From Clostridia bacterium (GTDB lineage Bacteria > Bacillota > Clostridia > RUG12999): a DNA stretch of 64,000 bases. The notes beneath the pieces are model-generated. The model ran no database searches. It saw only the letters and a list, made by a program, of their open reading frames with translations, and had not been told where the DNA came from. The stretch lies in the NCBI GenBank assembly GCA_045534775.1, contig JAZSKI010000049.1, forward strand, positions 9,254 through 73,253, read 5' to 3'. Position numbers and translations under genes: made by a program. Shown here piece by piece: positions 28,196 through 32,782 of this stretch (the first letter of the stretch is position 1; each line of letters opens with the position of its first letter).

Positions 28196-28324
28196 TAAAG
28201 GCTTCCCCTCGAGGGGAAGCTGTCACGAAGTGACTGATGAGGTGTAGCTTGCAAGCAATAGTTGTTTCATTTTCACCTCATCCGAGTTGCTTCGCAACCC
28301 ACCTTCCCCTCAAGGGGAAGGCTT
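28196..28324. repeat. symmetric array of five inverted repeats (two near-identical 20-bp GC-rich palindromes flanking three nested hairpins)
   Basis: A=GCTTCCCCTCGAGGGGAAGC (28200-28219) and A'=CCTTCCCCTCAAGGGGAAGG (28301-28320). B=gtcacgaagtgac (28221-28233) and B'=gttgcttcgcaac (28285-28297). C=gatgaggtg (28235-28243) pairs with C'=cacctcatc (28273-28281) around a 29-nt centre. Confidence 0.5.
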
Positions 28325-28373
28325 TTATCCCTTACATATCAAAGTTTAGAATTCGCGAACGATTTAGATGCCG

Positions 28374-28814
28374 TCAAAAATGTGCCTCATAATAATAAAA
28401 GTTATCTCTGATTTTTTCTGTGTAATATCTGTTATACTGATAATCAGTTGAATATCCTTCCCCATCTTTTTTCAGTAAATCCGTATCACAATACATTGTT
28501 CCGCACCAAATTGCCTTTGGCAAATTGTCTTCCGTATAATAGAAACCATAATCATGTGATGATGGAGCAATACCAAAGCCTCCACAATAAAAATCAATTC
28601 CCTCTTCTGCAATGTCAACAGACTCAATTCTGCTTAAATTCAAAGAATCGGAGAAATCTTGTTCAACAACATCAGAAAGTAATAGTTCATAATTTTCATT
28701 CACAAGTATAAAAATTTCTTCTTTTGCATCTTTATCAAAAAAGACTTTTTTAAATAAGAATGTAATGACTATGACTAAAAGTATTGATAATATAATTTTA
28801 ATTGGTTTTTTCAT
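28374..28814 (-). CDS. hypothetical membrane-anchored (signal-anchor) protein with Tyr/Asn-rich C-terminus
   Basis: 146 aa. N-terminal TM MKKPIKIILSILLVIVITFLF. C-terminus ...YSTDYQYNRYYTEKIRDNFYYYEAHF. Its start abuts the stop of the upstream four-helix-bundle gene. Confidence 0.55.
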   Translation of the reverse strand: MKKPIKIILSILLVIVITFLFKKVFFDKDAKEEIFILVNENYELLLSDVVEQDFSDSLNLSRIESVDIAEEGIDFYCGGFGIAPSSHDYGFYYTEDNLPKAIWCGTMYCDTDLLKKDGEGYSTDYQYNRYYTEKIRDNFYYYEAHF

Positions 28815-29195
28815 TTAATCGCCTTTACTTTGGTTTTCCTTTGCAGTATTTACTGACTTAACAAGCATCCGCCTGATGATGCCACATTCATTCAATAGTT
28901 CCTTTGAAACCACTTCCGTTATGCAGTTTGAACCAACAAGCATTTCAATCCAATACTCAGTTTCTATACATTCTTTTGAGGCAATATGAAACTTGTTTAT
29001 AAAATCAGCTTTGCTTGCTGCACAATTTGCTTCGTGTATATTCGCTCCAATCGATGTTGAGCTACAAATGATTTGATTTATCAAAACACTTCTGCCTTTC
29101 TTCGAATCAATAGCATCGCAAACTGATATGATTTTAAGTGCAAGTTCTTTTGCTCTTTTGCGAAGTTCTGAGTCTTTCATAAATTTGTCCTTCAT
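28815..29195 (-). CDS. four-helix-bundle protein of the 23S rRNA intervening-sequence / Avd-like family (TIGR02436-like)
   Basis: 126 aa. Family signatures ...FINKFHIASKECIETEYWIEML... are present. Confidence 0.7.
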   Translation of the reverse strand: MKDKFMKDSELRKRAKELALKIISVCDAIDSKKGRSVLINQIICSSTSIGANIHEANCAASKADFINKFHIASKECIETEYWIEMLVGSNCITEVVSKELLNECGIIRRMLVKSVNTAKENQSKGD

Positions 29196-29330
29196 ATATG
29201 TCCAGTGAAGTTTTTGATTCTCAAAAGTGAAGTTAAGTTTGCCACTTCACCGCCAGGTGAAACTTCACTATCGCAAGATATCTTCACTTGCCCACAAGGG
29301 CAAACTTAGTTAATAATTTCATCTCCAATG
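29196..29330 (-). promoter_or_regulatory. structured 5' leader with five GTGAAG/CTTCAC repeats forming mutually exclusive hairpins (attenuator-like)
   Basis: AGTGAAG at 29204 and 29226. Its reverse complement ACTTCAC occurs at 29254, 29272 and 29282. One hairpin is 29227-29233/29254-29260, a 7-bp stem followed by UUUU on the minus strand. A second is ttgccc-acaa-gggcaa at 29288-29303. Confidence 0.4.
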
Positions 29331-29335
29331 AAATT

Positions 29336-29364
29336 ATTATATCATATTAAGCAAAAATTGTCAA
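29336..29364 (-). promoter_or_regulatory. perfect consensus sigma-A promoter TTGACA-17-TATAAT (minus strand)
   Basis: The reverse complement reads TTGACAatttttgcttaatatgaTATAAT. It drives the leader and the four-helix-bundle operon. Confidence 0.55.
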
Positions 29365-29395
29365 GAAAATTGTATTTAAATCCCATTTTGCATAC

Positions 29396-29424
29396 TTGAC
29401 ATATTTTACCGCAAGGTATATAAT
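29396..29424 (+). promoter_or_regulatory. perfect consensus sigma-A promoter TTGACA-17-TATAAT (plus strand)
   Basis: TTGACA at 29396-29401, TATAAT at 29419-29424. RBS AAGGTGAGG. TTG start at 29459. Confidence 0.6.
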
Positions 29425-29458
29425 ATATATGTGAATAAATCGAAGGTGAGGGATAAAA

Positions 29459-30403
29459 TTGAAGCTTTCTCTGATTGTTCCCTGCTACAACGAGCAGGAT
29501 AATGTTGATAAGCTCCTTGAAGCTTGCAATAATGCTTTTTTAAATAGAATAGAAGATTTTGAAATAGTCTTTGTGAACGACGGCAGTATTGACGATACCC
29601 GAAACCGACTCAGAGCCATTTTTGCCGACAATAATAATATAAAAGTAATAAATCTGTCGAGGAATTTCGGCAAGGATTCTGCCATATATGCCGGTCTTTC
29701 CCACGCCTGCGGCGATTATGTATCCATAATTGACGCCGATTTACAGCAAAGTCCTGAGATTGTAGTCGAAATGGTGGATTTTCTGGACAAGAACCCCGAT
29801 TATGACTGTATTGCCGCCTATCAGGATAAACGAATTGAAGGCAAAACTATGAGCTTTATGAAAAAGCTTTTCTACAAGCTCATTAACCACGTCTGTGAGA
29901 TACCCTTTAAATCAGGTGCCAGCGATTTTCGCACCTTCAGGAAAGCTATGGCTGACAGTATACTTCTGCTGAAGGAATATCACAGATTTTCAAAAGGAAT
30001 CTTCTCGTGGGTAGGCTTTAACACCTATTATATGCCTTACCGCGTGCAGGAACGCCACGCAGGCAAAACCGCCTGGAATTTCAGAAAGCTTCTGAAATAC
30101 GCCTGGAACGGGTTTGTCTCCTTCACCACCTTCCCTCTGAAGCTTGCTACGATAATGGGCGGCATCTGTGCTTTTTGTGCTTTGGTTTACACCGTTGTTG
30201 TAATTATTCAAAAGCTCTGTTTCGGTATAAATGTCCCGGGCTTCCCCACCATCGTGGTGTTGATTTTGCTTATCGGCGGTCTCCAGCTCATAACCTTAGG
30301 CATAATCGGTGAATATATTGCTCATATATATATCGAAGGTAAGCATAGACCTATCTATATCATAAAGGAATATTTAACCTATGACGAGGTGTCTGAAAAA
30401 TGA
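29459..30403 (+). CDS. family 2 glycosyltransferase, polyprenyl-phosphate sugar transferase (GtrB/DPM1-like) with two C-terminal TM helices
   Basis: 314 aa with LIVPCYNE, VNDGSID and the DxD motif IDADLQ, plus C-terminal TM helices. Confidence 0.85.
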   Translation: MKLSLIVPCYNEQDNVDKLLEACNNAFLNRIEDFEIVFVNDGSIDDTRNRLRAIFADNNNIKVINLSRNFGKDSAIYAGLSHACGDYVSIIDADLQQSPEIVVEMVDFLDKNPDYDCIAAYQDKRIEGKTMSFMKKLFYKLINHVCEIPFKSGASDFRTFRKAMADSILLLKEYHRFSKGIFSWVGFNTYYMPYRVQERHAGKTAWNFRKLLKYAWNGFVSFTTFPLKLATIMGGICAFCALVYTVVVIIQKLCFGINVPGFPTIVVLILLIGGLQLITLGIIGEYIAHIYIEGKHRPIYIIKEYLTYDEVSEK

Positions 30404-31704
30404 AGATAAACCAATCAAAAAACACTTTTTACATTATAAGCGGATTAATGTTTCTGCTTATGCTTTTATGTAATTTTCTGACAGGAAAATATTGTGACGA
30501 TTTCGCCTATTGCTACAGCTTTGCCACTAAAGAACGAATCGACAGCCTTTTTGATATTTTTCCATCCATCTACGCTCACGGAAACATTATGAACGGCAGA
30601 GCCGTTGCTCATTTTTTTGCACAGCTTTTTCTGATGCTTCCTCCCGCAATATTCAAAATAATCAATTCAGGTATGTTTGTACTGCAGATAATTTTAATAT
30701 ATTTTATTGCCAAACCCGAAAAAGAGCATAACAACCTGATTTTTATGGGTGTCTTCGGTGCGGTGTGGTGCTTTGAACCTGCTTTCGGTCAGGTTAACCT
30801 CTGGCTTGACGGTGCCTGCAATTATTTATGGAGTATAGTTTTCGGGCTTATATTTATCTATCCTTTTATAAATTTATTTCTCTATGACAGAAAAATAAAA
30901 AACAAGCTTATAAAGGTGCTTTTCGTATTTACAGGCTTCATTGCCGGCGCGTATCTTGAAAATGCCTCCGCCGCCATAATTTTTGCGGCAATTCTCCTGC
31001 TTATATTGACAAAATTCCATAAAAAATACAAACTACCCATCTGCAGCATCCTTTCCGCAGTCGCTTCAATCACAGGCTACGCCACTATGCTTATGGCTCC
31101 CGGAACCGCTAAAAACAAAGCTGCCGAGCTTACTCTCCAAACTCTTAGAGTGAATTTTATGACTGCCCTTGAAATGATGAATGAATTTCGTCCCCTTTTA
31201 ATTGCTTTTACGGTATTGCTCGTCATAGCCGTTGCAATAAAAGCCGATAAAGATAAAATCCTGCTTTCGTCAGTTTTTGCATTAACCTCGGTTTGTGCTA
31301 ATTTTATTCTGACGGTTGCCAGCTATTATCCTGAGCGTTGCGCCTTTTGCAGTGCAGTATTCCTGACAGTTGCCGTTGCAATTTTAACGGCACAGCTCTT
31401 TAAAACCGAGTACAAAATACCCGTTACCGCTATGGTATGGGTTATGCTTCTTATAACAAGCTATAATCTGATGCTCGGTATAAATGACATATATGCCACA
31501 GAAAAACAACGCCGCGCAGGCGAGGAATATATTATGCTGTGCAAATCGCAAGGCATAACAGAGGTTGAACTGCCTTTAATTCAGGCAACAACCAAATACA
31601 GTCCCGCCTACGAAATTAAATATCTCGATACCGAGGACCCTACTACCTGGCCTAATTACAGTATGGCAAAATTTTACGAAATTACATCAATTATAGGTCG
31701 TTAA
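30400..31704 (+). CDS. polytopic membrane protein, probable GT-C-type glycosyltransferase partner (GtrC-like)
   Basis: 434 aa with more than 10 TM segments. The 4-nt ATGA overlap with the GT2 gene indicates translational coupling. Confidence 0.5.
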   Translation: MKINQSKNTFYIISGLMFLLMLLCNFLTGKYCDDFAYCYSFATKERIDSLFDIFPSIYAHGNIMNGRAVAHFFAQLFLMLPPAIFKIINSGMFVLQIILIYFIAKPEKEHNNLIFMGVFGAVWCFEPAFGQVNLWLDGACNYLWSIVFGLIFIYPFINLFLYDRKIKNKLIKVLFVFTGFIAGAYLENASAAIIFAAILLLILTKFHKKYKLPICSILSAVASITGYATMLMAPGTAKNKAAELTLQTLRVNFMTALEMMNEFRPLLIAFTVLLVIAVAIKADKDKILLSSVFALTSVCANFILTVASYYPERCAFCSAVFLTVAVAILTAQLFKTEYKIPVTAMVWVMLLITSYNLMLGINDIYATEKQRRAGEEYIMLCKSQGITEVELPLIQATTKYSPAYEIKYLDTEDPTTWPNYSMAKFYEITSIIGR

Positions 31705-32493: not shown

Positions 32494-32602
32494 ATTTGTA
32501 TATTTACCTGAAATTATACATAATAAAACCCGCAATGCCGTAAAATGAGTTCACCAAAACCTGCCTCAGCAGGTGGGTATTTCCTGATTGCTTTATAAGT
32601 CC

Positions 32603-32632
32603 CCTGGCGTATCCGAAGATACGGGGGCATTT
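32603..32632 (-). other. stable stem-loop with UUCG tetraloop (minus-strand RNA) within a structured intergenic region
   Basis: Minus strand reads gCCCCCGUAUC-UUCG-GAUACGccaGGGG. A further hairpin CCUGC-ugag-GCAGG flanks it. Confidence 0.3.
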
Positions 32633-32782
32633 ACGCCACATTCAGAGAGCCAATTCCCTTATAAAAAATGTTGGTTTAGGTAATACTGTATTCACGAACA
32701 TTGCAGGCAATTTAAACTGCTCTATCAATACTTATTGTATCATATTCCGAAGAAAATATCAATAGTTTCGCAATAAAAATTT

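Follow-up and report, generated by a model that had tools for sequence, protein, structure and literature searches.

The stretch of DNA considered here, hereafter the window, comprises 64,000 nucleotides (nt) from a Clostridia bacterium (contig JAZSKI010000049.1 of GenBank assembly GCA_045534775.1, positions 9,254 to 73,253 of the forward strand), and the locus under study lies at positions 28,374–29,458 of the window. On the minus strand, a promoter and a structured leader precede a gene for a four-helix-bundle (FHB) protein of the S23p or 23S rRNA intervening sequence (IVS) protein family, and the stop codon of this gene abuts the start codon of a gene for a membrane-anchored protein of 146 amino acids (aa). 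The leader contains five copies of the word GTGAAG or its complement, which a sequence-only reading of the locus had interpreted as parts of a transcription-attenuation switch, the controlled operon resembling the target module of a diversity-generating retroelement (DGR). A different description is well supported, in which the five repeats are two complementary word arrays, designated A and A′, of a portable cassette on the minus strand. The cassette was placed, or swapped in, directly before the gene for the 146-aa protein.

The FHB protein matches PF05635 (E 1e-22, 80.7 bits against a cut-off of 33.8) and TIGR02436 (E 1e-26, 92.9 bits against a cut-off of 24), and its sole sequence match in the PDB is 2RLD, a non-DGR protein with five chains (E 1.4e-21). 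Because all homologues begin at MKDSEL, the start codon is more likely the ATG at 29180, served by the Shine-Dalgarno (SD) sequence GAAGGA, than that at 29195, which makes the product 121 aa long and the leader about 150 nt instead of the 135 nt first proposed. The earlier recognition of a TIGR02436-like protein abutting a signal-anchored one is borne out by the profile matches, by the contact between the TAA (28817–28815) and the ATG of the downstream open reading frame (ORF), and by an N-terminal transmembrane helix in the 146-aa protein (residues 3–25). Close homologues of the FHB protein number more than 1,350, with identities of 76–92%. The window protein has Cys39, Cys53, and Ser68 where Arg, Tyr, and Leu are found in all 120 of the 120 closest homologues (R39C, Y53C, and L68S); the ORF is intact, and the family-invariant residues of the motif RSxTSIGANIxEAxY...IALKEC are not. 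The copy of the FHB gene in the window may be losing function.

The minus-strand promoter is a consensus σ70 promoter, TTGACA-17-TATAAT with a TG extension, in which a 17-nt spacer separates the −35 (29364–29359) and −10 (29341–29336) hexamers. A second, divergent TTGACA-17-TATAAT lies on the plus strand. The sequence-only reading had noted two perfect promoters lying back to back, and both are confirmed at their coordinates; they are the only two in 64 kb, against an expectation of 0.01.

The portability of the cassette is evident from comparison with related loci, which are referred to here by L numbers. The window and L040 are 84% identical in nucleotide sequence over exactly 29346–28813, from the extended −10 element to the stop codon, and their flanks are unrelated. 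The same order of modules is present in L043, L016–L021, L024, L034–L037, and L044–L047, and the fetched loci of FHB homologues have a common architecture that consists of a palindrome (H0), ACTAAGTTTGCC-loop-GGCAA, two to four units of GTGAAGT and a hairpin, GGCAAACTTA, two to four units of ACTTCAC and a hairpin, an SD sequence, and ATG. This architecture is found at the 3′ end of a rumA-type methyltransferase gene (at least nine loci, with differing downstream genes and with the rumA stop codon inside the first GTGAAG word), behind serine-recombinase elements inserted beside rumA, between genes for an M29 aminopeptidase and a metallophosphoesterase, after a Na/Ala symporter gene, after yunB, and in this window, so that its contexts number at least six. 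Because the leader travels with the FHB gene into unrelated contexts, it belongs to the portable FHB cassette rather than being a regulatory device of this operon in particular. The suggestion of a previously undescribed module holds in so far as the element is poorly described in the literature, and not as regards operon-specific riboregulation. The cassette probably supplies the promoter of the 146-aa gene and, through the TAA-ATG junction, its translation.

It should be noted that cassettes vary in composition. The number of units differs between near-identical loci, with four in L035 and two in L034, two having been lost in the latter. In L016–L018 and L037, a second array A lies directly past the FHB stop codon, giving the order A-A′-ORF-A and a direct repeat of about 75 bp, and L019 has A′-FHB-A only. 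A promoter-bearing sub-lineage, comprising the window, L040, and L043, is united by its type of H0 and by its SD region; the single FHB gene of L043 follows promoter-H0-A-A′ in duplicate, as two complete copies in tandem (1035–1500). TGnTATAAT lies directly beside H0 in all related promoter-bearing cassettes. The rumA gene, of the TRAM plus U5-methyltransferase type, is the most frequent site of the GTGAAG-type cassette. The cassette lies at its very 3′ end in L020, L021, L024, L035, L036, and L044–L047 (at about 1320–1500, where the FHB gene starts at 1501); in L034 and L037–L039, a large-serine-recombinase element lies between rumA and the cassette.

On the plus strand, the leader of the window has AGTGAAG at 29204 and 29226 and CTTCAC at 29245, 29263, and 29282; the earlier count of five was correct, and two of the copies had been placed about 10 nt off, at 29254 and 29272. 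The array is unique in the window when defined as at least three copies of a 6-mer followed by at least two reverse complements within 200 nt. No such array is present in 29 of 30 shuffles; 6-mers were used, since the words have only 6 nt in common and detection with 7-mers misses the array. The order of elements on the minus strand is H0, ACUAAGUUUGCCC-UUGU-GGGCAA (anchor X and hairpin h1), word w1, h2, w2, h3 with w3, GGCAAACUUA, w′1, h′1, w′2, the SD sequence, and ATG (Table I). For 14 GTGAAG-type leaders, RNAalifold predicts h1, the inter-word hairpins, and helices between words and their complements. The words are invariant in these leaders, and the stems of the inter-word hairpins contain many compensatory changes, with 2–5 double changes per pair in h3 and up to 9 in h′1. 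The anchor, which consists of the first word and the 5′ arm of h1, has a perfect complement of 9–13 bp exactly between A and A′ in 10 loci representing 8 word families. Its sequence differs in each of the 8 families and the complement is nevertheless kept, and therefore the long-range anchor helix is supported by covariation. This helix competes with the local hairpin h1 and, in the ensemble calculated for the window, is about 5 kcal/mol costlier than the minimum free energy structure. H0 has a fold z of −6.5, and a hairpin is found at the same position in 12 of 14 related loci, with differing sequences. Sequestration of the SD sequence and spacer, seen in the predicted folds of the window and L040 (unpaired probability 0.2–0.36), was rejected as a feature of the family, in which SD accessibility lies anywhere between 0.2 and 0.95. 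Within the leader, a small ORF (MKLLTKFALVGK) was rejected as a leader peptide, as it has no usable SD sequence and is missing from L043.

Table I. Features of the locus in window coordinates; words, hairpins, and anchors are given as RNA
Feature	Position	Strand	Remarks
Portable cassette (extended −10, H0, arrays A and A′, SD, FHB ORF)	28813–29346	−	
Minus-strand promoter	29336–29364	−	−10 inside the cassette; −35 outside the block common with L040
H0 palindrome/hairpin, 13-bp arms, UAAUAAUUUCAUU-GGA-GAUGAAAUUAUUA	29311–29339	−	Overlaps the −10 box and the expected transcription start
Anchor X, UAAGUUUGCC; degenerate first word and 5′ arm of h1	29299–29308	−	Perfect complement at 29243–29234
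Hairpin h1, UUUGCCC-UUGU-GGGCAA	29287–29304	−	
Word w1, GUGAAG	29282–29287	−	Predicted to pair with w′2 (probability 0.93)
Hairpin h2, UAUC-UUGC-GAUA	29269–29280	−	
Word w2, GUGAAG	29263–29268	−	Predicted to pair with w′1 (probability 0.92)
Hairpin h3, UUUCACC-UGGC-GGUGAAG	29245–29262	−	3′ arm includes w3 (29250–29245); stem covariation
Anchor′, GGCAAACUUA	29234–29243	−	Between the two arrays; exactly complementary to anchor X
Word w′1, ACUUCAC	29227–29233	−	
Hairpin h′1, UUUUGA-GAA-UCAAAA	29212–29226	−	5′ arm is the UUUU tail of the sequence-only reading; stem covariation
Word w′2, ACUUCAC	29205–29211	−	
Shine-Dalgarno sequence GAAGGA	29188–29193	−	For ATG 29180
FHB gene (S23p/23S rRNA IVS protein family), 121 aa	28815–29180	−	PF05635/TIGR02436
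146-aa membrane-anchored protein	28374–28814	−	Host cargo, not part of the cassette; ATG abuts the cassette TAA
Divergent promoter	29396–29424	+	Host's, for the operon of a family-2 glycosyltransferase (PgfS-like) and DUF6056; outside the cassette

The words themselves differ between families that have the same architecture. The gene most closely related to the 146-aa gene (83% identity) is in L050, where the junction is likewise GGTGATTAAATGAAAAA and where a cassette of the same architecture, with the words AGCTAAAT/ATTTAGCT, occupies this identical position; the FHB gene of this cassette is a different one, 44% identical and interrupted by a stop. Conservation of GTGAAG in orthologous leaders, which the attenuation proposal had called for, is thus absent in the closest of them. 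The upstream neighbor in L050 is also another, an ulvan-lyase-like gene. Further families have the words GCGATATA/TATATCGC (L001, L004, and L005), ATGAATTG/CAATTCAT (L013 and L023), TCGATAT/ATATCGA (L010 and L011), and GTGATAT/ATATCAC (L054), and in every family, GTGAAG/CTTCAC included, the words of A and A′ are complementary. Arrays without an FHB gene are found in L010, L011, L013, and the first copy in L043, and the FHB genes of L004, L050, and L023 are truncated.

Array A of the window is a diverged form of the RNA motif Gut-1. The Rfam model of Gut-1 (RF01706) aligns over its full length (positions 1–77) to the A half of the window leader with 26.6 bits and an E value of 0.002–0.013, a score below the Rfam gathering threshold (50 bits), and in this alignment a GUGAAAU-like word comes after each of the three hairpins, all on one strand. 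Related loci score 32–59 bits, always on the sense strand, and form a graded series: L054 (59.1 bits), L023 (49.5), L005 (41.3), L043 (40.3), L035 (39), L016 (37), and the window. The sequence in L054, which scores above the threshold, is the same as that of the Gut-1 seed BAAZ01025322, and an FHB gene 53% identical to that of the window comes after it. The flank of a further seed, BAAZ01000095, contains a complementary AUAUCAC array and an anchor complement, and no FHB gene. Gut-1 has been described only as a small RNA (sRNA) of gut metagenomes, with no gene association (Weinberg et al. 2010, PMC2864571), and the supplements of that paper do not mention the FHB family. No literature was found that links this family to Gut-1 or to heptad arrays outside rRNA, the exception within rRNA being the heptamers of the Coxiella IVS.

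Inverted arrays of short words also flank FHB ORFs in Treponema, Nostoc, Planktothrix, Monoglobus, Bernardetia, Chlorohelix, Gloeocapsa, Chondrinema, Euhalothece, and L022; such arrays are present in all relatives examined, and these span five phyla. In 12 of 13 loci, the number of 6-mers shared in inverted orientation between the 200-nt flanks equals or exceeds the maximum of 200 shuffles; L055 is barely above this maximum and L057 below it. Short words, often as plain tandem heptamers, are present on one side of the ORF and their reverse complements on the other: TTAGTGA ×15 and TCACTAA in Bernardetia, CCAGTGA and TCACTGG ×12 in Euhalothece, GCAAGTC and GACTTGC ×36 in Nostoc, sets of GATTTAC and CCCCAAT in Planktothrix, and RGAAAG-type words in Treponema. 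The long heptamer arrays adjoin the FHB genes at L052 1582–1892 (GACTTGC ×36), L060 1255–1351 (TCACTGG ×12), and L056 721–885 (TTAGTGA ×15), with a short complementary word set on the other side of each ORF. Altogether the ORF is enclosed by complementary repeats in L016–L019, L022, L037, L051–L053, and L055–L060. The FHB homologues from cultured organisms, found on plasmids in PLSDB, have identities of 31–43% and lie co-directionally inside operons, as in hsdS-FHB-hsdR (Monoglobus), drmD-FHB-pglX (Planktothrix), helicase-FHB-N6 methylase (Chlorohelix), DUF1156-FHB-Swt1 HEPN (Gloeocapsa), and between genes for an RND pump (Chondrinema). The operons of L053, L055, L057, and L058, on plasmids of Planktothrix, Monoglobus, Chlorohelix, and Gloeocapsa, are of defense type. 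In the IVS of Coxiella, an S23p ORF is accompanied by terminal inverted repeats that are cut by RNase III and by tandem heptamers of variable copy number upstream of the ORF (PMC4990558).

The best explanation of these observations, to which we give about an even chance of being correct, is that the portable cassette carries an IVS-like RNA stem for processing and insulation, possibly serving as a protein-binding platform as well; the leader is neither an attenuator that senses a metabolite or tRNA nor part of a DGR. The words would pair in the transcript to form a branched stem, which would be the counterpart of the terminal inverted repeats of the 23S rRNA IVS that are excised by RNase III. 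Such a stem would act as a processing and insulation device of a selfish cassette tolerated inside transcribed DNA, in that it would set the 5′ end and the stability of the cassette mRNA and separate this mRNA from the RNA of the host. The words, being of heptad size, may additionally form a binding platform for the pentameric protein and so provide feedback control.

Several observations weigh against this explanation. A stem composed of helices of 6–9 bp and broken by hairpins is not a classical RNase III substrate, and the combination of identical words with divergent hairpins suggests sequence-specific recognition rather than mere pairing. The leader alone folds modestly better than shuffled sequences (z = −2.0). 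The sense and antisense strands fold equally well (−1316.7 versus −1313.3 kcal/mol, summed over 20 arrays), and therefore the G-U strand asymmetry expected of a purely RNA-level structure is not seen; the comparison of the two strands, by fold energy and by G-U counts, does not separate RNA from DNA. The loops are mirrored between the halves, with UNNC in A and GNNA or GNA in A′, a dyad symmetry like that of a DNA palindrome. As for H0, its overlap with the −10 box and the expected start site leaves hardly any room for an RNA hairpin in the promoter-bearing copies, and an operator is the better likeness. Both arrays of the window lie upstream of the ORF and none lies after it, so that the ORF is not enclosed, in contrast to that of the 23S rRNA IVS. 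Finally, with three substitutions at invariant residues of the FHB protein, any function that depends on the protein may have been lost in the window.

The alternative that survives best, although it is unlikely, is that the pentameric FHB protein binds to the words, whether in RNA or in DNA. The arrays would titrate or position the protein, for autoregulation or as a sponge, in the manner of TRAP or CsrA, and the complementary array would compete. The identity of the words within a locus, while the hairpins between them differ and covary, is expected under this proposal, as is a word size of about 7 nt that is maintained across phyla (GTGAAGT, TTAGTGA, TCACTGG, GACTTGC, GATTTAC, and GACAGAT in Coxiella). 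Full-length arrays have four to five word-like units, and the family forms pentamers, S23p of Xanthomonas campestris being a homopentamer (PMC4990558). Similar proteins are accompanied by similar words: the proteins of L059 and L060 are 55% identical and both loci have a CAGTGA core, and those of L053 and L058 are 69% identical, with the words GTAAATC and TAAAATC. Moreover, formation of the anchor helix turns the words into strands that connect the helices of a multi-helix junction. However, binding of the protein does not need the complementarity of A and A′, and the arrays of Cyanobacteria and Bacteroidota have 12–36 tandem copies. The arrays also persist where the FHB gene is absent (L010, L011, L013, the first L043 copy, and BAAZ01000095) or decayed (L004, L050, and L023), and L057 and L023 have the word ATGAATT in common although their proteins are not nearest relatives.

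Less probable again is the proposal that the arrays act in DNA, as ends for recombination or transposition or as hairpin or cruciform sites for insertion, duplication, and exchange, with the RNA structure as a by-product. The sharp boundaries of the cassette and its many insertion contexts are consistent with this, and the A-A′-ORF-A order with its direct repeat would be expected if a circle integrates at an A site. The tandem duplicate of promoter-H0-A-A′ in L043, the occupation of the identical junction in L050 by a cassette from a different word family, and the difference in unit number between L035 and L034 point in the same direction, as do the missing strand asymmetry, the mirrored loops, and the palindrome H0 at the left boundary. 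On the other hand, no recombinase or transposase is present in or beside the cassette, the serine recombinases of L034 and L037–L039 belonging to separate elements beside rumA. The arrays invariably point the same way as the ORF, and in nearly all cases the same way as the flanking genes, both are at one end of the window cassette, and no target-site duplication is evident.

The attenuation switch of the sequence-only reading, in which mutually exclusive GUGAAG:CUUCAC hairpins decide the fate of a terminator at about 29223 and thereby control the two-gene operon, is very improbable. What stands of it is the structured element with mutually pairing repeats: w3 and w2 are alternative partners for w′1, and h1 and the anchor helix are likewise alternatives, four U residues follow w′1 in the window, and the SD region is sequestered in the predicted folds of the window and L040. 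The proposed intrinsic terminator (29250–29244 paired with 29233–29227, followed by UUUU) fails, however, since a terminator scan makes no call at the leader and the probability of the predicted hairpin is 0.06. Its stem has 2 G-C pairs in 7, its loop is of 10 nt, and the U-tract is of only four residues, which constitute the 5′ arm of the next conserved hairpin, h′1; no U-tract is present at that position in 13 related leaders. Moreover, there is no conserved leader peptide, SD accessibility is not uniform among the relatives, and the element also occurs without any downstream gene.

The 146-aa protein contains 14 Tyr residues and has 87 homologues, from uncultured gut Clostridia, its nearest relatives being 83 and 66% identical. 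It had been described as having a Tyr-rich and diversified-looking C terminus; the first part of this description is correct, but in an alignment of 21 homologues the Tyr-rich sequence YYTEKIRDNFYYYEAHF is the most conserved stretch, and the C-terminal 17 residues are invariant or nearly so. The homologues are thus ordinary conserved ones, without C-terminal variability. Of 14 loci containing the 146-aa gene, about 9 have a cassette or array at a distance of no more than 3 kb, and therefore the pairing with the FHB gene recurs but is not universal. Complete H0-A-A′ arrays without an FHB gene adjoin 146-aa homologues at L010 4506–4677, L011 1066–1293, and L013 428–566. It seems that these elements favor the neighborhood of the 146-aa gene. 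A search of the window for a template-repeat-like copy of the last 157 nt of the 146-aa gene gave a best repeat of 15 nt, which is at the chance level. No reverse transcriptase (RT)-like ORF is present in the window, where only three ORFs of at least 200 aa contain Y[AV]DD and these are, by inspection, RnfC-like, coiled-coil, and of S-layer type, and no RT gene lies in the flanks of relatives in other contexts. The idea of an orphan DGR remnant, with an Avd gene beside a variable target protein, has practically no chance of being right and is refuted: it was suggested by the inclusion of Avd in the same broad family, PF05635, and by the small, Tyr-rich downstream protein, and it is already contradicted by the conserved C terminus, by the absence of a template repeat and RT from the window, by the lack of matches in PHROGs, and by 2RLD as the sole PDB match. 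Neither the FHB protein nor the 146-aa protein has a match in PHROGs or PADLOC, and 0 matches to the anchor and first word were obtained in viral contigs; a phage or defense-gene reading was dropped.

Among the other features near the locus, the plus-strand promoter serves the genes at 29459–31704 (+), which encode a PgfS-like family-2 glycosyltransferase (TTG start at 29459) and a DUF6056 membrane protein, a pair that probably belongs to a polyprenyl-phosphate sugar pathway. At the gathering thresholds, Rfam gives no match at the locus, and the sole family found in the window is 6S RNA (RF00013), which matches over its full length at 32523–32712 (minus strand) with 94.5 bits. At 28200–28322 on the minus strand, about 50 nt past the stop codon of the 146-aa gene, lies an element of about 120 nt with strong structure (fold z = −6.5). 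Two palindromes, CTTCCCCTYRAGGGGAAG, delimit this element and are absent elsewhere in the window. Copies of this element are present in L008 (85% identity over 131 nt), L013 (three copies), L043, and L002, and its matches to the Rfam family whalefall-1 are weak, the 29.4 bits scored in L043 falling short of the threshold of 37. In appearance, the element is a second structured repeat dispersed through these genomes. The motif GCATCTAAA(T/C) recurs at boundaries of genes and cassettes, at about 1880 in L040, at about 4465 in L010, and upstream of the 146-aa gene in L002 and L011, where it lies within a promoter-like TTGCAT-17-CAATAT; a similar sequence is found in the window at 28360–28372 (minus strand), just past the stop codon of the 146-aa gene.

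A broader proposal, which we put forward tentatively and regard as doubtful in its full extent, is that FHB genes with inverted arrays of words of about 7 nt represent one widespread and unrecognized class of selfish cassette in transcribed DNA, including operon spacers, defense operons, and rRNA helices, and that the pentamer reads the heptad words. The very large family TIGR02436/PF05635 is not known to have a function outside DGRs, Gut-1 is an orphan RNA motif, and the ORF-bearing IVS of rRNA are without a known origin or means of mobility. The locus and its relatives tie these three unknowns together into one testable system. If the proposal is true, a single cassette class would explain the orphan Gut-1, the origin of the ORF-bearing rRNA IVS, and at least part of the heptamer repeats of Cyanobacteria. 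For annotation, it should be recognized that such cassettes can donate strong promoters to their neighbors, as for the 146-aa gene, and that they can sit within operons, including those of restriction-modification and of BREX/DISARM-type defense.

Several known systems resemble the cassette in part. Avd, the accessory protein of DGRs, is itself pentameric and is in the same Pfam family as the FHB protein of the window, but the window has no RT, no pair of template and variable repeats, and no variable target, and there is no match to phage families or Avd structures at E ≤ 0.01. TRAP, a ring-shaped protein, binds an RNA operator of repeated motifs in the trp leader, and the cassette resembles such an operator in having identical short words with irregular short spacing in a 5′ leader together with a putative ring-shaped oligomeric binding protein; it differs in having a complementary array, which the TRAP sites lack, and no pair of terminator and anti-terminator is conserved in the cassette leaders. 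The short tandemly repeated repetitive (STRR) sequences of Cyanobacteria are tandem heptamers. GACTTGC ×36 in Nostoc and TCACTGG ×12 in Euhalothece, which flank FHB homologues in inverted orientation, are like them, whereas the words of the window are few (3 + 2) and separated by hairpins. The IVS of 23S rRNA in Coxiella and Leptospira have an ORF of the same family, complementary flanking repeats, a selfish and patchy distribution, and frequent decay of the ORF, and in Coxiella the ORF is immediately preceded by tandem heptamers whose copy number varies; in contrast, the window element lies between protein-coding genes, in a window with no rRNA, its words are interrupted by hairpins, and it has its own promoter and a good SD sequence. 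The likeness to Gut-1 consists of three small hairpins, each followed by a word of the GUGAAR or GUGAUAU type, on the sense strand and in gut Clostridia. The word in the window is GUGAAG, not GUGAAAU, and the published motif, classed as a free-standing sRNA, corresponds to the A half only, to which the cassette adds the A′ array, the anchor helix, usually an FHB gene, and, in the lineage of the window, its own promoter.

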